64,000 bases of DNA from Octopus vulgaris (taxonomy: Eukaryota). Of this stretch, positions 13,101 to 57,926 are shown one piece after another. The notes below the pieces were generated by a model that was not told the origin of the DNA, did no database searches, and saw only the letters and a program-made list of their open reading frames with translations. Numbering within the stretch: position 1 is the first letter of the stretch; every line of letters begins with the position of its first letter. The DNA is taken from positions 99,138,001 to 99,202,000 of the forward strand of contig OX597821.1 of the NCBI GenBank assembly GCA_951406725.2, read 5' to 3'. A program made the position numbers and the translations under genes.

Positions 13101-16100
13101 ACAAACCCAACACAGAAGCCCTCATATCTAAAATAACAATTTGATAAGATAGCCCAAGCCATGGAGAAGGCCTCATAATGTATATAAAAATCATGCATTC
13201 AGTACGAAGCAAATAATCTGAAACACCTTTCTACAATTAACAACTTAATAAAACTAGTATATGCTGACAGCAAACAACACAAAGTGTATTAACGTAATAA
13301 ACATATATATGCCAGCTCTAATCCCACCAGGTTTACTCATCCCGTACACAACAGCTCAACTCACACCAAATACTATCAGTGGTGGAAATTTCAATGTATA
13401 AATCCAGGTACAAAAACAATAACATAAGGGGTAACTACTTTGTGATTCTACATATTTGGTATCAATTGATAGGCGAATTCTCTCCCTTCTTAAAGCAGAT
13501 AATGCCATAAAATTTATTCACTGGTAAAAGATACAGTAAATGCTTTCTATCACCATTATTATTATTCAATATATCAAATATGGAGAAAGTTCTAACCCAG
13601 AACAACTTACCACCATTCCTTCTCAATTGGTGTCTGCATCTTCTAAATTCAAACACTGTTCATGAACATTTGGAAAATTTCTTGCTAGTATTCCAGATCT
13701 CATGAGTTTCATGATGCATTAGAATTTACTGCAGATTGTGACAAGATTTATTTTCTAAAGGACATTTAGATTAAACCAGTTAATAAGGTTTTGTGAGACA
13801 TCAACTTTATATATAATTTGCAAGCAACATCAAATAGAATCCATAAATCAATTTCAAAAAGTGTCATCATTATAGTATATTTCAGAAGTATCATTGAGTA
13901 TAAGGTTCCAACTACTTGAAAGTAAAATGCTTGACTTAGAAATAGTAGAATAAAAAGCTAGAGTATAAAATTAGCTCAAAAGCTAGCATTCATAACAATA
14001 TTTTTATAAATACTACTACAGCTATAAAGTAGCATGTCAAGCATAAATTATTTTAGCAGTTGCTTCTTCAAAGTGTTTTTATGGAGGGTATACATACAAA
14101 CAGAAAATATCCATCAAGAGATACCATATGCTAAAAGGTTGAGAAAAAAATATTATTTCAGATAATAAACCAATAGCCTAAATATTAATTTCTTCACATT
14201 TATCAAATTCTTTAAATTTTAACAAAGCATTGTTTCTCTTAATGTTCAGAAAGCATTGTTTGACAATAAACCATTCAGAAAAAATATTTCAATGGCATCA
14301 ACAATACATGTAAGTTCCTAAACCACAGGATTTGTAAAGTTGACATTCTATATCTTGGACAGTTATATAAACAGCAGTCAATGCTGAAATCTAATACTTG
14401 GCCAGGAGTTCATGTCTCAAAAACTTTCAGTTAGATTTAGTTCAATAGCTTTGAAGATTCTTAGTGTTGACAAATTTTACTTGCCAGAAGATTCAACTAG
14501 TAATATCATCATCATTAATGTCTGTTAAATGATGATGATGATGTTACTATTTGAATCTTCTGGCAAGCAAAATTTGTCAACATTAGGTATCTTCAAAGCC
14601 ATTGAATTTAAATCTAACTGAAAGTTTTTGAGACATGAACTCCTGGCCAAGTATTAGATTTCAGCAGTGACTGCTGTTTATATAACTATCCAAATTATTC
14701 ATTAATTTGATACAAATGCCAAACCTATTGCTATACTAGCACAAAGGCATTCTATGGACAAGTAAACTGTCATCAGAAAAGAGGTAAACTACTTATTTGA
14801 TCAAAGAAGTTTTCATAGAACCAAATAATTCTCCAAGGAGAGCCCAAGTTGTTGTAACGAAAAATGAAAATTGCAAAAAAATAATTTGTTACTTGATTTT
14901 TCAACCACTGTCAACACTTAATGTATTTTTCTTGTCTATTACTGATGAGTTACTATATTGCAACATTTTTATGCTGTAACTTGGAATGCCAACAGATTGG
15001 GGTACAGACTAGATGTTGAATCAAAGACACTGAAGTTGGCCTAGATTCCGTTGTGGGGTTGCTCATAGCCATATGCAGCAGTTCAAGCGTTTTTGACTCC
15101 TGGATAGTAGCATTCAAGTGTCTCTGAAAGATGAACAAATGAAGTGTATCTAATCACACTAGAACAGTATCTAGGCAAGTAATACACATGTAAAATTTCA
15201 GCCCATTACATCAATTATTCTCAGAGATATTGTGACCTAAAGGTTGCTCCTCATAGTCAGAAATGTGATTTTGAAAAAAACGCAAAAATGCTGGAAATGG
15301 TTGATTTTTCCAACAATGCCCAACTACACAAGGATAATATCCACATATTAGTGAAATATTTGCAGTTCTGTATCGTCTAATAATACCCAGAGGCTTATCC
15401 TTTGCTATTTTTCTGAGATTTTGCTATCTGAAATCTGAGGTGTTAATCTTGCCTTTAAAAAAATGAAAGAAATGCTGAGGACTAAAAGAGATAAAAATAT
15501 GCGTTTTTCTGAATACAACACAAATTCGAATTCATTCTTAATGTGTGACAATATGTTGATGTACGCACAAAGAGTCGTAGTGCCAGCCACACTACAGAAG
15601 TGATTACTAAAGGAATTTCACATTGGTCATCCAGGGATTTCGAGAATGAAATTGTTAATGAGAAGTTATGTATATTGGCCAATAATGGACCGTGATATTG
15701 AAGAACTAGTGAAAGCATACAGAGGTTGTACCCTAGCTGCAAAAGCACCTACCACTAAATGGCAGCCATGGCCAAAAACAGATATTCCATGGTTCAGACT
15801 ACATGCTGATTATGCAGGTCCACTCAAGGGTTTATGTTACCTTGTTGTGGTGGACAGTTTTTCAAAGTGGCCTGAAGTGCATAAGTGTAAAAAGCCAACA
15901 TCTGCAGTTACATTAAGTTTTGTACACAAATTGTTCACCAGATATGGTATTCTTGACACCATTGTGTTCAATAATGGAACTCAATTTACTTCAGATGAGC
16001 TCAGAAAATTTTGTAAAATGTTCATTATTGAACATGTGACCACTCTGTATCATCCTAGGTCAAATGGACAAGGGGAGCATTTGGTTGACATTTCCAAGAG

Positions 16101-19100: not shown

Positions 19101-21115
19101 TTCTACACGTGGACCATCATACAATCTGCCCTGCACTTAGAGAAAGAGACCCTTTATTTCCTTCAGAATAGTCACCTGAAATTTTCAACCCTACAACTCC
19201 CATTGCAGCCTAATAAGGTCACCTAGGTATTAGAAGCTCTCGATAGTATTCAGTGATCTTTCTGGACAGTTTAAAAAATTCAGTTAATGAGTGCTCTTGC
19301 TACTAACTATTTTTGAATGCTTGTTACACAAACCTTCACAGTATTAGTTTTTATTCAGAGTTACTGCTGTCCTAGATGGATGACCTTCACTACTACTTGT
19401 CTCCTCTGTTCAGAGTACTCAACTTCCTAGATGGATTGCCTTGAATACAGCTTGGTAGTCACATCACTCCATGATGGAGAGAGTAGATTTAGAGAGTTCT
19501 TAGTTACTAAGAGGATGTAAGGGAAATGAGCATAAAACTGTTTCTATTATGAGAGAGGAGGAACTTGTAATGGTAGTCAGAAAATAACAGAGTCTCAATT
19601 CCCAGTTAGCTGAGAATTGAGGCTGTCTTCAATGTAAGTGAGAGAATGTCTTTTTTTCATTTGGACATTTGTTTTAAGAGATAAAGTCTTGTCAGATTCT
19701 AGCAAAATTGTTCAAGAATATTTCATGAACAAACTTGATTAATATTAATTCTGCAGACAGTAATCTAGAATTTTTCTGAGTGAAAGTTCTAAATATAAAC
19801 AATAAATATAAACATTGTTCACTTAGTTAATCTTTCCCATTCAATTCTTGCAGTACTATAACATCTGATCTACACTTTACATCACTCATCAATGACAGAA
19901 ATATGTTTTTCTTCATTTGGACACTCCTTTCATCAACGTTAAAGGTTTTTTGTTTTTGGAAGCTAATGAAAATGTTCGAGAATATTAAACTAAATTATCC
20001 AATACTAAATCAACTCCAGCCTTCAAAAAATTTTTTTTGTAGTCAATATCTATACAATATCACCATCTTTATGCATATTTCATGCAGTTTGTCTTTTCAC
20101 ATGGTGAGAGAAGTTTTTTTTTTGTTTTTAAAAAAAGTAATAGATCTTTGAATGCCTCAACACACTTAGCAGATAGTTTCTGTTATTTAAATGATCTAAG
20201 AAAATATCTAAACAACAGAAACAATCTTAATACATTTAGTGAGCTTTCTAAGCAGTTCATGTACTTCATTTTATGGGTGATTCAGGCCCCAAAGTTTGCT
20301 TAACATGGTTTCTACAGTTGAATGTTCTTCCCAATGCCAACCACTTCACAGGTTTCTTTCATTGTGCTGCTTTTGTGGAACTAGTACTAATGATGTCACC
20401 ATGAAGTTTGCAACACTAAAATTCTCTTTGACTAAATGGGGCTACAGTAGGGAGGGAGATAGGAAATACAGGTGCATAAGAAATTCAGGTGAGATATAAC
20501 AGGAGTGAGATATGACTGGAGATAGGAAATGGGTGTGAGGTGAATATAATGAATGAAGAACAGTGTTGAGGGATGATAAGTAGAGATGATAAGAAAAAGT
20601 AGGTAGGCTTGAGGGGTAGACATAGAGACTGGTGGATAAGGAGTGAGGAGTGACCTATGATACATGAGTTTGGGGAAGATAAGGGAGAGTAAGAAATGAC
20701 TTATAATGCATAAAGGAGAATAATAATAACTATTAAAGTCAGGGAGAGGATGAGAGAAAGAGTGGAAGAAAGAGATGACATATTCAGTAGGCTGCAAAGT
20801 GAGTGGGTAGAGAAGCAGGCATATTACATGAGCAGAGTGAAAAATGTATAGTAGTGAAGAAGGAAAGACTATTTCATGACCCGGGAGTATGATCAATGTA
20901 AAATGTGGATAGAAAGAGAGTAACAAGAATAAAGGCTGGATATCAAGTGAAATTGTTCTGGTAGTGACCTGATTAAGTATGCAGTTCTGCTCACATTTAA
21001 TAACAGCAACACAATACTGAAGGTTAAGAGACGATGGTTAGTGGGAGTGACATGAGGAGGAAATAGGGTTAGAGGAAATTGTGTATGTGTGTGTGTATAC
21101 GTGCATGCATGCATG

Positions 21116-37656: not shown

Positions 37657-40600
37657 ACTGCGTGGCATCTTGGGTAAGTGTCTTCTGCTATAGCCCTGGG
37701 CCAACCAATGCCTTGTGAGTGGATTTGGTAGACGGAAACTGAAAGAAGCCTGTCGCATATATGTATATATATATGTATGTGTGTGTGTGTTTGTGTGTCT
37801 GTGTTTGTCCCCCTAGCATTGCCTGACAACCGATGCTGGTGTGTTTACGTCCCCGTCACTTAGCAGTTCAGCAAAAGAGACTAAATGACTGAAACAAGTA
37901 AAAGAGTAAAAGAGTATGCAAATATTTTTCCATATAAATATTTGCCTTGTTCTGTGTATATCAGTTTATTGATTACCACTGATCAGACTCATATTGATAA
38001 AATGAAAACATACAGCTTTCAATGAACATTGTTCAAATTTGCAAATTCTTTTAATGTTAGTTGAGTGATTTTTGTTGATTAATATGTATTTTCATCAATG
38101 TTTATTATTAAAAATATAAGGATATTCTAAAAGAAAAATAGTTATAAAATACTTAAAAGAAGTTTAAACGTCAATATATTATTACGAACACTTTTTATAT
38201 AGAAAGCATATGCTTGAAACTGTAATGTCATTAATATTCTACTGATACATTCCTTACATCTTTGAAATTATGCTATAACACCTTAGATCCAACTTCTATG
38301 GATTTTTTTTTTTAGTTGCAATGTTGATATGTAACACCACCAAGAACTGCACTATGAAGACTAGGGAACTATATATAGAACATCCCAGAAGCCCTCAGTG
38401 AATTCTATATGGCTGACTGACAGCATAGAAATAGGTGAAGCTTATTTCTCTGTCTCTTAAAGTACAATTAAGATGCTCTTCAGTAGACTAAATCTAATTC
38501 TTGTTCTTATATAGTTCAGAACATCAGAGTATCTTTCATTTTGTTTCTCAGCAATTAAGAGAGCAATCCCCTTGTGATGCTTACTAGCTTCCTCTCCCAT
38601 CTCTCCTGATGTAGACATGACTATAGAAATGAAGAGCCCTTTTCTATTTGGAGCACCAAGTCATTTTCTTCTTCCATTCATGTCTTGCATAAACCCAAGA
38701 CAAAGTCTTGTTTATATATGTAGGTGCATTTGGATGCATAACACTGATGTTCAACAATGATTTTTTCAAGGGGACCCCAAACTCCAATTCCAGACAACAT
38801 CTAACCATCATTTTTCAGCAGTATTGCAATTTCTCATCACGTTTGTGTCTAGTGGGAAGAGTTTGGTTTTCACCTTCACACCATTACACATCTTTCGCAT
38901 CAATACTACCTCAAAGACCCAAACACAATTATGTCTCATGGACACAAATCCACCCCGCTTTCTGCATGAGAGGGCATGGTCAATGTTGTTTTAGAGTCAC
39001 ACTGGCAGTAAATTTGTGTTTGGGATTTTCCATCAGTACCTGTAATTTTTACTCCTGTACCAGCAAAGATTTCATTTGCCCTTGGTTTAAATCAATCTCT
39101 TACAATTAACAAAATTTTCAGAGTAACGGGATAGGCCATATTTAGGACCAGTAGTGCAAAGTTCATTCCACCATTCTGTTTAGTATTAATTAAAATCATT
39201 TCTGTCTTGCAGTGCAAATATTTAAATATCACATAATACATGTTTCTTATTACAATTAATTCACTGTACATATGTAAATACATATGTATTGAAACAATAA
39301 ATATATGGAAATGCAAAACATTGTTGGGTCATTCATTCATGTTTTAGTACCCAGCTTCCTACCTCTACCGTCTCTTCTACCTAAGTACCATAACCAACCC
39401 AACAAAATGTTTCTTATGTGATATGTTAACAAATTCAGAACTTCTTGAAGCTTTTGATTCAATCAAATGTTAACGGAATTTGATAATAATATAGGCAATA
39501 AAATTTCTCACGGTTTTAAATTATGACTAATGACTACTATGAATAAATGAATAGGGATGGAACTTTTGATACACAAAATGCACTAGAGAAGTATTGTTTT
39601 ACTTCGTTTTGGTATCTGGTTTGCAAAATTCTTTATATGAATTCATGTGTTGAAACAAATTTTGTTGAGTCTAAAGAGATTCATTATGCCAATATAATTA
39701 AAACACATACCGGTTCAATTCTACTCATTTATTAAATATCTGATTGTTTTGTTTTTGTTTGTCAAAGCTCTTACATAACCTCTTGCAATCTTTGTCATTG
39801 AAAATGGTAGCAAGAAGCAACAAAAGAGCTTTGACAAAAACAAAACAATCGGATATTTGATAAATGAGTGAAATTGAACCAGTGTGTATGTTAATTATAT
39901 TGGGATAATGACCCCACAGCACGAAATATTGGTTTGTTCTCAAGAAAAATAAGGTTCTTAAGAAATGCTTGCTTTGGGGTGGGAGGTCAGTTAAACTCCG
40001 ACATGAAAAATATAAAATTTAAAAAAAAAACAAGAAAGCTGGTTCCATAGACTCGCATGGAATCGTACATGATAATGCTTAAAACATACATCCAGAGAAA
40101 TTTAGTTGCTAGTGCAGTTTCCAACTCGGAAACTCTAGCAATGTCTATTTTCTTTCGGATTTCCTTTACAAAAAGAAAAATATCATTCAGACTTCACAAA
40201 TCCATATTAATCAGGTACCTTACAGATTAACCTTATTACCTTCACACGCATAATCAATGTCAAGGCCACAATTCGCGCAAACAACGGTCACTGACAAGTA
40301 GTTTCCCTTTCAGCACCTATAAGCCAAAAACATTGCTATAAAACTTTTCCAGTCCGACCTGCCTCCAAAATAGCCAATTCCAGGACTAAGGCGTCTGTAT
40401 CTTTTATTATGATGCTTATGCTTCTTTACACTTTTATTTATTTAACTTAGTAATGCCAAAATAAAAGAATAAATAAACTCTTTTTACTATGAGGTAAGAT
40501 CTATCAGCGCTCTTTTAGTTTCGCTGCCCCAAACGAACAAGAAATGTCCAGGAGAAGCTTTACACCACTAATTCTTATTTGTTCTACCTGTATACTTTCC

Positions 40601-50501: not shown

Positions 50502-50754
50502 CAATGTGAGGTATACTTGCCATCTCAATATGGCTAGCCACTAAGGGTGGGTGTTACTGTAGCTTGTAGCCCCAGGAGAACATCGTCTCCAGCTGGCTTT
50601 AGGCACACTTTCTGTGCCCTTATGCAAATACCATAAGGGCATGGAAAGTGTGCCTAAAGCCAGCTGGAGACGATGTTCTCCTGGGGCTACAAGCTACAGT
50701 AACACCCACCCTTAGTGGCTAGCCATATTGAGATGGCAAGTATACCTCATATTG
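50502..50754. repeat. Near-perfect palindrome, 123-bp arms, 7-nt loop, 3 mismatches
   Basis: Arms 50502-50624 and 50632-50754; loop CAAATAC. Confidence 0.95.
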
Positions 50755-50878: not shown

Positions 50879-51826
50879 TTACTCATCTGTATTAATACAT
50901 ACATGTGTAGTTAAATGGCTTTTTTGAGAGAATGGTTTGCCACAGATATCACAGTGATATGGTTTCTCTCCTGTATGAATACGTTTGTGTATAGTTAAGT
51001 GATCATTTTGAGAAAAGGTTTTACCACAAATATCACACTGATACGGTTTCTCGCCCGTATGAATCCTCTTGTGAGTAGTTAAAGTATTTCCATGAGAAAA
51101 CGATTTGCCACAGATATGACAGTGATATGGTTTCTCTCCTGTATGAATACGTTTGTGTATAGATAAGTGATCGTTTTGGGAGAAAGATTTACCACAGACA
51201 TAACAGTGGTATGGCTTCTCCCCTGTGTGAATGCGTTTGTGAGTAGTTAAGTTACATTTTGCAGAGAATGATTTACCACAGACACCACAGTGATATGGTT
51301 TTTCTCCTGTATGAATGCGTTTGTGAGGAGCTAAGTTACCGGAGTCAGAGAATGATTTACCACAGATATCACATTGATATGGTTTCTCTCCTGTATGAAT
51401 ACGTGTGTGAGTAGTTAAGTCACTATTACCAGAGAATGATTTACCACAGATATCACAGTGAAATGGCTTCTCTCCTGTATGAATATGTTTGTGATTAGTT
51501 AACTCATTATTTTGAGAAAATGATTTTCTACAGATATCACAACAATATGGTTTTTCTCCTGTATGAGTACGTCTGTGCTTAGTTAGATGATCATTTTGAG
51601 AGAATGATTTACCACAGGTATCACAGTGATATGGCCTCTCGCCTGTGTGAATACTTCTGTGTTTTGTTAAGTTGCTACTTGCAGAGAAAGATTTACCACA
51701 GATATCACAGTGATATGGCTTCTCTCCTGTATGAATACGTTTGTGAGTGGTCAGGTTACCTTTCTGAGAGAATGACTTTTCACAGATATCACAGTGGTAT
51801 TGTGTTTTACCTATTTCATTTGACAT
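50879..51826 (-). CDS. Tandem C2H2 zinc-finger protein, 315 aa, 10 intact fingers plus 1 degenerate, no effector domain visible
   Basis: Repeated [16 protein letters not shown] with TGEKP linkers. CDS lies in a single exon; splice acceptor ttgtttatttcag at 52077-52076. Confidence 0.93.
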
Positions 51827-52699
51827 CTTTTTGGGAAAGAAATATGTCGACCCTTGAAATTTTTCACAGTATTCATTTTCCCATAATTTTTCTTTTCTCG
51901 CTTCAATATATAGATATTTCTATTTTTTGCTTTTATATTTATTCCAAATAAATATTTCTAGATATATTTCCATCAACTTTTATCAGTGTCAATATCTCAA
52001 GTTGTTGCAATTTTTGTAGTAAATCTGATCATGTTGAAGTTAAATTATACTTTTAATCGAATGCCATCTCATATTCTGAAATAAACAAGAAACATCATAA
52101 GATTAGAAGATATTTAAAAAGTAGAAATTCAACAGTGAGCATTTGACTACATTTTTATATTGATAAATTGTAGATATAAACATTTACCTTAACAACTGAA
52201 CTTCACTTTTCCAGTCTTATTACAGAGAAATATAGCTGAATCTAACGATAAGTATAGAACTGAAGGATAACATTTACAAATGGTCTTCCTTACATCTCAA
52301 CATGATGAATAAATCACTAGCTGTCAATATTGACTACTACACGTATGATATCAACAAGAAAATAATCACATAGAAACAAAATACACAGAAAAGAAGGCTA
52401 TAAATTAACTCAAAGGAGTGAGTCATAGCGATGAAAACAGATACACTGTTCCACAAGTTCATCAATGGGTTATATATATATATAGAAATGCCTCAGTGAA
52501 TGTGTGTTGCATCAGTACAATGTGGGGATGAAAGTATACTGTTTATAGGAACTAATAGAATTGGTTTATTCATTTTTATATTCCATCACCTTAACATGAC
52601 ATGCCTATAGAGATTCTATAAAGAGATAAATCTTTTCTGTTGCTGTCACAGTTTTTATGGGATATAGTCTAGTCACCTGTATAGTTAATCAGGTTGTCC

Positions 52700-54675: not shown

Positions 54676-55514
54676 AGGAGTTCTGTTGTTTTTTTATCGT
54701 CAGATGAGAACTGTGGGTTTGGTATAAAAAAAAAAAAAGAATAGTCTGGTGGGCTCAATAACAGCTGTATTGGTTGCACATATGGTCGTGTATCCGGGAA
54801 TGATGATGATTGGAATAACAATGCTGAACTCTCTTATATTACCTGGCTGAACAGGTATATAATGGCTAGTCTGCTATGTCTGTATCAACATTTAATGGCA
54901 ACGCTTTTTAATACAGCATTCCATCTAAATCACTTATTGTTCTGAAAGATGATGATATTGTCACATCTGTTGATACCGGCAAGGCTAAGACATGATACAG
55001 GGCCAAGCATATGCGCTGTTGCGAGCCTCGCCTGGCCTCTGTGCCGGTGGCACGTAAAAAAGCACCAACTGATCGTGGCCGATGCCAGCCTCCTCTAGCC
55101 CCTGTGCTGGTGGCACGTAAAAAGCACCCACTACACTCACGGAGTGGTTGGCGTTAGGAAGGGCATCCAGCTGTAGAAACATTGCCAGATCTGACCGGGC
55201 CTGGTGCAGCCTTCGGGCTTCCCAGATCCCCGGTCGAACCGTCCAACCCATGCTAGCATGGAAAGCGGACGTTAAACGATGATGATGATGATGTTTGACT
55301 TTCTAACATGAATAAAAAAAAAATGGGGCATTCACCACATTGTTATTAAGCTAATAACATACTACCTTCTCTGAAGTCTACAGATTTAGGCTGCAGCTAC
55401 ACCATCATATTGTGTAGGATTAGCTGTTACGGCACTGTAATGGTATTAGCTCCTGACAGATAATTCCGTGGTAGTACCGCTGTTACAGTACATCATAGTG
55501 GATGATAACAATCT

Positions 55515-55779
55515 TGTTTGTAAGCCATTTAAGAAACACACAAAAGCCGTTCGATTCACTTCAACATTTAAGTTTAATTTGTCAAAATATTTTTGTCAGT
55601 GAACAGGTCGCGGATTTTAGCGACGAAAATATTTTGACAAATTAAACTTAAATGTTGAAGTGAATCGAACGGCTTTTGTGTGTTTCTTAAATGGCTTACA
55701 AACACCTTCCACGCTGCAATTGTTTTCGTTCCAGCACACGATCTCAGATCAAATCACTTGCTATGCAAGTACATCTCCG
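55515..55779 (+). mobile_element. Short Penelope-like insertion: inverted pseudo-LTR pair plus tail
   Basis: Perfect 79-bp inverted arms (55515-55593 / 55626-55704), 75-nt tail, flanking direct repeat TAACAATCTTGTT (55506-55518 / 55780-55792), central hammerhead motif. Confidence 0.6.
55592..55641 (+). ncRNA. Minimal type I hammerhead ribozyme motif (Penelope-type) with G3-C8 core swap
   Basis: UUUGUCA | GUGAACA | G | GUCGC-ggauuuua-GCGAC | GAA | AAUAUU (palindromic helix III) | U17 | UGACAAA. Confidence 0.65.
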
Positions 55780-56104
55780 TAACAATCTTGTTGCTCTCTA
55801 GAAGCATTATTCATAGCCGTATCACTAAATTAAAGATCAAACATTATTTTCATAGATTCTACAATAAAAAGAAGCGTTATGATGATGAACAAAGAGAAAC
55901 AGCATTAATAGCAAAAATAATTCGTATAAATTTACTTCAGTTAATAACGACAGCTGAAATGATACAAAATGTGTTGGTCCCCCTGTTACTTTAATTAATG
56001 TTTAAGAAATGTTGTAGTTTCTTTACAGATATTGTAGGTAGATGTAAAGATAATATGGGAGACAGAAAGATAAAGAAGTGTATTCTGTGTAAAAGTGATA
56101 AATA

Positions 56105-56400: not shown

Positions 56401-56548
56401 TTCTCCGTTTTGATTGGAAATTTTCCAATTTTTTTTTTTTTTTACCATGGAGTCATCACACACCCTCTCACCAACCCTCTCTAGACCGATTTTGGCCAAT
56501 TTTATTTTTGCACTACGCACTTAAAAACTACGGAAGAAATCTTTCTAG

Positions 56549-57328
56549 GGATCTTTTCCTTTTGAACGGCAGTTTTCAACACAATTTCTAGTTAACTAAA
56601 CACTTTTAAATTTCGTATACTGGTAGAATGTGTCAAAATAAAACATTTTTTTTCTCTTGGCTTTCTTGAGAAAATTGTAGTTTGTAAGTTTAACGTAGTT
56701 TAATTTTTCGAATTTTAACCAATCCTATGGCCTCTATTGAGCTAAAATCATTTGCTGCGTCTAAAACTGAGACAACATCAAGTCACTAACCCTAACTCTA
56801 ACCCTCACTCTAACCTTAACCCTAACCCTAAATTTTAGCCATTCGTTTTTTTTTTCTTAATTGTTAAATTAATTTAATTGTTACGCGTGTATCTAAAATT
56901 ATTCGTTTTGTTTTTGTTTTGAGTTTTTGCTTTCGTTTTTTTTTTTCTTAATTGTTAAATTAAAATTATTTTCCATTGCTTTCGTTTTAGCCTTTCGTCT
57001 TTTTTTTCTTAATTGTTATCCTTAAATTAATTTAACAATTAAAAAAAAAAAACGAAAGGCTAAAATTTAGGGTTAGGGTTAAGGTTAGGGTTAGTGACAG
57101 GATGTTGTCTGTTTTAGACGCAGCAAATGATTTTAGCTCAATAGAGGCCATAGGATTGGTTAAAATTCGAAAAATTAAACTACGTTAAACTTACAAATTA
57201 CAATTTTCTCAAGAAAGCCAAGAGAAAAAAATGTTTTATTTTGACACATTCTACCAGTATATGAAGTTTAAAAGTGTTTAATTAACTAGAAATTGTGTTG
57301 AAAACTGCCGTTCAAAAGGAAAAGATCC
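56549..57328. mobile_element. 780-bp foldback element with ~300-bp TIRs containing telomeric repeats, perfect 8-bp TSD
   Basis: TSD CTTTCTAG at 56541-56548 and 57329-57336; termini GGATCTTTTCCTTTTGAACGGCAG; CCCTAA-like tract at 56786-56831 and TTAGGG-like tract at 57067-57094. Confidence 0.92.
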
Positions 57329-57857
57329 CTTTCTAGTTAAAAAAATTGAAAATATTTTCAGATGAAAAGGTGTGTGATTTAAGGGTGATTTGGCTGGTGT
57401 TTCTAGCACATCCCACAACTACTTAACTCGTTTCACACATGTATCGATGTTTTTCAATATTTTTCTCCCCATAAACACATTCCTTTGGAATGTGAGGCCG
57501 TGTGTCTGTGTGTGTGTAAGAAAATAAAAGGGTGGACCTGGCGCACTGCCACCCCTCCCCCAATCCAACCTTTCCGATTTTTTTTTCATCAAATTCTTAT
57601 TTTCGATGACAAAGATTCCAAATATACAAAAAACACAAATTTTTATTTTCACCCCCGCCAATTTTTAACTTTTTAACTTTTTTTCGAAATTTTCTTTTTC
57701 AATCCACGTGGAAAAATACGAAGATTACGAGTAAAGTCTTCCTTCCCCGCACCATTTTCTCCCAAATTTGTTTATTTTTGTAATTTCTGGAAAATTGCCA
57801 AAAGTTGGCATTGTGAAATTTTTTCCCCAAACTTCTATTTTGACATTTTTCCCCAAC

Positions 57858-57926
57858 ACTAACCCTAAAACCCTAACTCTAAAACCCTTATCCTAACCCT
57901 AACCCTAAAACCCTAACCGTAACTGT
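57858..57926. repeat. Degenerate interstitial telomere-like (CCCTAA/CCCTAAAA)n tract
   Basis: CTAACCCTAAAACCCTAACTCTAAAACCCTTATCCTAACCCTAACCCTAAAACCCTAACC. Confidence 0.7.

Follow-up and report, generated by a model that had tools for sequence, protein, structure and literature searches.

A hammerhead-like motif with a G3-C8 core in a probable Penelope-like insertion of Octopus vulgaris

The insertion and its surroundings

The stretch of DNA considered here, referred to below as the window, comprises 64,000 nucleotides of contig OX597821.1 of Octopus vulgaris and carries LINE and ZNF remnants, as in an animal genome. A ZNF frame with 346 stop-free codons and 11 C2H2 zinc fingers occupies positions 50879-51919 of the minus strand, and the insertion that is the subject of this work lies 3.6 kb from this exon. 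Some 220 bp to the left of the insertion, there is a SINE-like repeat (55015-55290) that contains a duplication of 46 nt and terminates in (GAT)n.

The insertion is bounded by a 13-bp direct repeat, TAACAATCTTGTT, with copies at 55506-55518 and 55780-55792, and contains two inverted arms (55515-55593 and 55626-55704) that are identical in 79 of 79 bp and separated by a 32-nt spacer; if one T.G mismatch is allowed, the pairing of the arms reaches 83 bp. A 75-nt tail (55705-55779) is found on one side only, where it separates the right arm from the flanking repeat. The left arm overlaps the direct repeat by its outer 4 bp, and, because the family ends at 55782, TAA belongs to both the element and the repeat. 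An earlier, sequence-only reading had described identical 79-bp inverted arms, a 75-nt tail and a 13-bp flanking repeat, and all of its coordinates were reproduced; its view that the insertion is young is likewise upheld by the perfect arms and repeat and by the apparent absence of the insertion in two of four organisms (see below). The 64-kb window contains only one copy of the element. The parts of the insertion are as follows:

55506-55518, plus strand: left copy of the target-site duplication, 13 bp; the final four bases, TGTT, double as the outer end of the inverted arm and show microhomology to AACA at 55701-55704
55515-55593, minus strand: inverted, 5'-truncated partial copy, the reverse complement of 55626-55704 (79/79 bp), confined to this locus
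55591-55782, plus strand: 3' portion of a repeat family with a very high copy number (from Logan contigs), probably a Penelope-like pLTR and tail
55691-55782, plus strand: ATG-started frame, open through the 3' end of the element; possibly the start of a putative ORF of the element
55705-55782, plus strand: tail, present in the direct copy only; the family has 3' ends at 55782 and also at 55778 and 55720-55724
55780-55792, plus strand: right copy of the target-site duplication; it starts with TAA, which is at the same time the 3' end of the family

The hammerhead-like motif

At the apex of the palindrome lies a motif that resembles a small self-cleaving ribozyme of the hammerhead type and consists of the following parts:

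55592-55641, plus strand: minimal type I hammerhead-like motif with a G3-C8 core (sequence, descriptor and folding)
55599-55606, plus strand: core G3 U4 G5 A6 A7 C8 A9, with an extra G between positions 9 and 10.1 (sequence)
55607-55624, plus strand: helix II (5 bp, G10.1-C11.1) and loop II, which has 8 nt here and a different, 9-nt form in a second subfamily
55625-55634, plus strand: G12 A13 A14, palindromic loopless helix III AAUAUU, and U17; predicted cut after 55634

Helix I has 7 bp (55592-98 with 55635-41), G3, C8 and the extra G are at 55599, 55604 and 55606, respectively, and the strands of helix II (55607-11 and 55620-24) are closed by G10.1-C11.1 (55607/55624), followed by GAA (55625-27), AAUAUU (55628-33) and U17 (55634). 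The literal core C3 U4 G5 A6 N7 G8 A9 is not matched, with G3 and C8 found instead; positions 3 and 8 are Watson-Crick complementary, and U4, G5, A6 and A9 are intact. The extra nucleotide following A9 and the G10.1-C11.1 closure of helix II are both present, as are G12 A13 A14 A15.1, the palindromic helix III and U16.1 H17, all at 55625-55634. Hence the earlier claim that 55592-55641 folds as a minimal type I hammerhead except for its core stands, all other conserved positions being in place.

Could such a motif have arisen by chance? A PLE-type descriptor (any Watson-Crick 3-8 pair, palindromic helix III, G10.1-C11.1), which was composed after the motif had been seen, was applied to 20,000 dinucleotide-shuffled versions of the 192-nt element and matched 1 of them, compared to 6 for a looser descriptor and 0 for a descriptor of the motif as observed. 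The PLE-type descriptor found no site in 30 shuffled windows, and its sole match in the real window is 55592-55641. The isolated 50-mer of the motif folds with -14.7 kcal/mol (z = -3.4). Judged by these data, 55592-55641 is a real hammerhead-type motif, far beyond chance expectation. The looser descriptor has a second match in the real window, at 19188 on the minus strand, with a U3-A8-like core, a helix II of 7 bp and a helix III that is not palindromic; this match is probably accidental. In Rfam, the motif had no match at the gathering threshold and no hammerhead family came up to E=10; the element gave only sub-threshold matches to generic hairpins. Scans with motif patterns gave 22 loci and 1 locus in viral contigs and 1 locus in metagenome contigs, all of them chance matches limited to the pattern itself, and 0 matches in two scans of prokaryotic genome contigs, one of which used a pattern one position longer than the form in the window and so does not bear on that form.

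The minimal hammerheads (min-HHRs) of PLE pLTRs are characterized by an extra nucleotide after A9, by G10.1-C11.1 and by a palindromic helix III (PMC4209133), and 24 of the 56 PLE representatives, as counted here from the same paper, have U17. The octopus motif is like the min-HHRs of metazoan PLEs in being type I, in having GAAA, a loopless palindromic helix III and an NUH site with U17, and metazoan PLE min-HHRs, too, are mostly found in single truncated copies and in high number (PMC4209133). The major difference is position 3, which is G here, as opposed to 53 C3, 3 U3 and 0 G3 among the 56 representatives (our count from Fig. S3 of PMC4209133). In addition, the extra nucleotide is G here, whereas the PLE min-HHR consensus is H (although G occurs), and helix I has 7 bp compared to the typical 4-5 (PMC4209133). 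Natural U3-A8 hammerheads have been published (Perreault 2011, PMC3088659; Cercyon of S. mansoni, PMC4209133). As in these, both partners of the 3-8 tertiary pair differ in a compensatory way in the G3-C8 core, which CUGANGA descriptors fail to detect; unlike in U3-A8, the purine and the pyrimidine are swapped instead of forming a transition pair. G3-C8 is shared by a large repeat family, but to speak of a "non-canonical ribozyme family" overstates the case: the core differs by a base-pair swap that works partly in engineered hammerheads and parallels the natural U3-A8.

Among individual elements, a close parallel in layout is PAc (Poseidon, Anolis), in which the hammerhead is likewise positioned shortly upstream of the internal RT initiation sites that define the tail, although its core is naturally C3-G8, unlike the G3-C8 here (PMC11167929). 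The PLEs described in octopus (Craig 2021, PMC8557442) show tandem and inverted insertions, a tail and a preference for (TA)n; the core of Hydra-1_Obim is the canonical ctgaagag, and Naiads are without canonical hammerheads (PMC8557442). The 13-14-nt strings of the motif had no match in the accessible text of the PMC8557442 supplement, where line breaks could hide one. Neither a natural G3-C8 hammerhead nor the motif of this family was found in the accessible parts of the literature, including PMC6765202, PMC6155905, PMC10085705 and PMC8967140; Lunse 2017, which reportedly describes about 150,000 small PLE-linked variants, and Przybilski & Hammann 2007 may cover G3-C8. The corresponding parts of PMC11300833, PMC13282606 and 10.64898/2026.07.22.740005 yielded no natural G3-C8 hammerhead either.

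The repeat family in Logan contigs

The 419-nt stretch 55572-55990, or part of it, was present in 20 of the 24 listed runs, which represent four organisms and one metatranscriptome with a small share; Logan contigs of one run from each of the four organisms (X1, X6, X8, X13) were aligned to this stretch. Between 5,591 and 15,592 contigs per run aligned, nearly all of them on the element, and the summed depth relative to the flank was 10,132-44,518x on the core bin and 81,123-353,354x at the peak, ratios that are not copy numbers. In the arm-side bin 55572-85, the depth was only 6-79x the flank, as compared to >10,000x on the motif. Loose ends were found before 55591 and behind 55782 in all four runs. 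To the left of 55591, 77, 42, 59 and 54 contigs, respectively, carry a common 14-nt motif that is unlike the inverted arm, although the overall agreement of the loose ends upstream of this point is only about 0.5. This common extension of the family contigs past 55591 shows that the 5' strand of helix I is part of the native element and that the palindrome is confined to this locus.

A second subfamily is recognized by 81, 59, 79 and 55 contigs that break at 55619 and continue with a different, 9-nt loop II. The consensus of their loose ends keeps helix II, G3 and C8 in all four runs, with U4 misread in one; the median length of these ends is 12-16 nt, and C8 and G3 are 16 and 21 nt away, so that a minority of the ends reach the core. 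A large repeat family carries the motif, and both of its loop-II subfamilies have G3 and C8; every part of the motif, including helix I, is encoded by the family.

Within the motif, only one listed variant exceeds 7%, namely, A55637G (7-17%), by which a U-A pair in helix I becomes U.G, and no variant of at least 2% is listed at 55626-55636. Positions 55592-55614 are also without listed variants, which is likely to be an edge effect because CpG decay is unlisted there as well; this silence is not counted as conservation. Across the copies, then, one sees changes of loop II with the helices kept, one U-A to U.G replacement and no two-sided change, in a region that is subject to near-edge mapping bias. 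Among the loose ends listed for the four runs, there was no C3-G8 relative, with the proviso that mapping to a reference that is itself G3-C8, close to the native edge, is biased towards contigs with this core, and no pile-up of 5' ends at 55635.

The main 3' end of the family, at 55782, is sharp and is supported by 196, 140, 217 and 165 contigs; the sequences that follow it are AT-rich but heterogeneous and have no poly(A) in common. Other 3' ends are at 55778 and at 55720-24, the latter with TA-rich continuations. The ends at 55720-55724, about 60 nt short of the main one (25 contigs in X6, 22 in X8), represent tailless copies, possibly targeted to (TA)n. Back-joints of partial tandems, in one contig each, connect 55779 to 55619, 55715 to 55591, and 55636 to 55589. 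As for the locus itself, contigs of X1 and X6 cross the junction between the element and the flank, whereas those of X8 and X13 align from 55794 on, with 250 and 61 unaligned bases leftward, which suggests that the insertion is absent in the latter two organisms.

Nature of the element, possible cleavage and insertion

PLEs typically show an inverted, 5'-truncated copy together with a tail on one side only (PMC8557442), and such an arrangement, a 5'-truncated copy with an adjoining inverted copy and a single tail, is found here. The element also has the defined 3' end without poly(A) and the nearby hammerhead that are typical of PLEs, the motif being about 150 nt from the tailed end. The tail, in contrast, measures 60-78 nt, as compared to the 30-40 bp described for PLEs (PMC8557442). 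Peptide searches with the frames of the 192-nt element fragment revealed no link to an RT/GIY-YIG ORF, protein searches with the element frames found no match among proteins near their length or longer, and Pfam and the Atlas had no match for these frames, including 55691-55782. Three matches of the element frames among representative proteins were to unrelated repetitive proteins. In the 55691-55782 frame, the common family variants at 55699 and 55753 are synonymous, and those at 55731 and 55752 are not; its ATG is reminiscent of PAc, the tail of which lies in the start of an ORF, although this is a hint only (PMC11167929). We infer that the element is quite probably Penelope-like.

According to folding calculations, the native segment forms helices I and II with a probability p of about 0.7-1.0. 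Once the left arm is added, helix I drops to p=0, and adopting the hammerhead fold comes at a cost of 17.4 kcal/mol. The predicted outcome for this copy is therefore inactivity, and the competition foreseen in the sequence-only reading is decided, in these calculations, in favour of the long hairpin by ~17 kcal/mol. In the monomer, a G3.U17 pair extends helix I (p=0.67, 1.3 kcal/mol), and with C17 in place of U17, the G3-C17 pair would be far more stable (p=0.98, 3.5 kcal/mol). The modelled nested double-hammerhead dimer comes to -28.8 kcal/mol, as compared to -30.8 for two monomers, relative to which it is 2 kcal/mol less stable, and -32.7 for the cofold minimum. It can be envisaged that the G3-C8 core would retain the Watson-Crick tertiary contact by which the 2'-OH of nucleotide 8 is held in position, and that U17 would avoid the Watson-Crick G3-C17 trap, leaving the weaker G3.U17 wobble; the possible G3.N17 trap mirrors the C3-G17 trap. 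The motif would probably self-cleave weakly after U17 in the RNA of the parent element, either as a dimer or with the help of a protein. Activity is favoured by the engineered C3G/G8C change, which partly rescues the hammerhead of PAc, a PLE ribozyme that needs its protein (PMC11167929), and by the existence of natural U3-A8 variants. Against it speak the G3.U17 pairing and the unfavourable dimer, a G3-C8 variant with C17 that was reported to be less active (PMC3884650), and the PLE min-HHRs, which are barely active in vitro even with the canonical core (PMC4209133). In view of the modelling and these analogies, it appears reasonably likely that the family motif retains residual activity. By its sequence, the feature is a real PLE-type minimal hammerhead form that fails only the literal C3/G8 consensus, and for the locus as a whole we lean slightly towards a high-copy, likely PLE insertion with a family-encoded G3-C8 hammerhead that would probably cleave weakly in the parent RNA and would be inactive here.

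The alternative that deserves most attention, unlikely as it seems to us, is that the motif of this PLE family is derived from a hammerhead but catalytically dead, G3-C8 having been fixed in the founder and the fold persisting by hitchhiking or as a structure that binds a protein or pauses the RT. Hammerhead activity is dispensable for PLE insertion in vitro, where hammerhead mutants left insertion unimpaired (PMC11167929), and the Naiad PLEs thrive without canonical hammerheads (PMC8557442); the G3.U17 trap and the unfavourable dimer point in the same direction, as do the origin of the copy at 55591-55782 from an uncleaved RNA and the location of both cDNA truncation points, 55591 and 55626, at helix boundaries. 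Drift, however, would hardly produce two exactly complementary core changes with the other conserved positions intact, and the divergence of the subfamilies within the motif is restricted to loop II and a pairing-compatible site. It is distinctly less probable that the hammerhead variant is real but its carrier is not the end of an autonomous PLE, being instead a PLE derivative that is not autonomous, an element of the retrozyme kind, or some other SINE or LINE that had acquired the motif. Such a carrier would account for the failure of peptide searches to link an ORF and for the upstream loose-end agreement of about one half, and animal retrozymes have been proposed to be derivatives of PLE pLTRs (10.64898/2026.07.22.740005); yet 5' truncation also predicts poor upstream agreement, the motif is of the minimal PLE type and not of the canonical retrozyme type, and what is seen is a single dispersed copy with a target duplication, an inversion, a tail and a 3' end that lacks a shared poly(A) or simple repeat. 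The head-to-tail tandem monomers expected of a non-LTR retrozyme are not found in the window, where the copy is single.

The other two explanations do away with either the ribozyme or the retroelement. An ordinary repeat hairpin that happens to resemble a hammerhead would go with the lack of an Rfam hammerhead match up to E=10, and the post hoc composition of the descriptor leaves some room for it, but we regard it as very improbable given the results with shuffled elements and windows and given that the PLE-specific extras are present in the expected place, about 150 nt from the tailed 3' end. A MITE or fold-back DNA transposon, with the 190-bp palindrome as its unit, is brought to mind by the perfect 79-bp arms and by the sub-threshold Rfam matches to hairpin miRNA families; it is, however, largely refuted and retains almost no credibility, as the tail separates the right arm from the direct repeat and as family contigs run natively past 55591, so that the left arm is not common to the family. 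The native upstream contigs, together with the low depth of the arm-side bin relative to the motif, imply that the palindrome is not the unit.

The preferred reading, a family-encoded hammerhead with residual activity, could be carried one step further, namely, to an active natural G3-C8 hammerhead that has become fixed in a PLE family ranking among the most abundant of this genome, is present in thousands to tens of thousands of copies and has gone undescribed, being invisible to CUGANGA/UUGANAA descriptors; this proposition is tentative, and we are somewhat more inclined to doubt it than to accept it. If it were true, some PLE clades scored as hammerhead-less may carry swapped cores, with position 17 held to non-C; the prediction is a coupling whereby G3 excludes C17. 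If the motif cleaves, it would provide a natural high-copy test of the 3-8 tertiary pair, in an orientation that we have not found reported from nature, and hammerhead censuses, along with "no hammerhead" calls for PLEs, would be descriptor-biased. The catalytic mechanism of hammerheads and the classification of PLEs would stay unchanged.

The sequence of the locus further allows one to propose how the palindrome arose. The direct repeat ends in TGTT, four bases that can pair with AACA at 55701-04, where the inverted arm begins. Accordingly read, the target would have been nicked at two staggered positions 13 nt apart; the bottom-strand end would prime on the UAA of the RNA at 55780-82 and be extended to 55591, the top-strand end, TGTT, would prime internally on AACA at 55701-04 and be extended to 55626, and the two cDNAs would join at TTT (55591-93), yielding a palindrome with the tail on one side. 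Priming of RT by the two target strands, each at a short microhomology, is the best explanation of the palindrome. The insertion spans both sides of the cleavage site, and therefore the template RNA was uncleaved, as were, likewise, the templates of PAc insertions (PMC11167929). In vitro, a PLE protein cleaves both strands and extends them, with internal initiation (PMC11167929); RT on PAc starts at a site that is non-homologous to the cut DNA, whereas at this locus there are 3-4-nt microhomologies at both primed ends. In that case, the locus would document at the level of single bases the way in which two-strand priming can give rise to PLE palindromes that are tailed on one side.

Several other fold-back structures are found in the window. 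A near-perfect, MITE-like palindrome (50502-50754; 123-bp arms, 98%, 7-nt spacer) lies about 125 bp downstream of the minus-strand ZNF ORF and might be a dsRNA or editing substrate in a 3' UTR. Long imperfect palindromes are also present at 14350-14698 (arms of about 170 bp) and 39681-39911 (78-bp arms). A fold-back element of about 790 bp (56547-57330) has inverted arms of 95-97% identity and inward-pointing internal (TAACCC)-like repeats, and further repeats of this kind occur at about 57860-57920.
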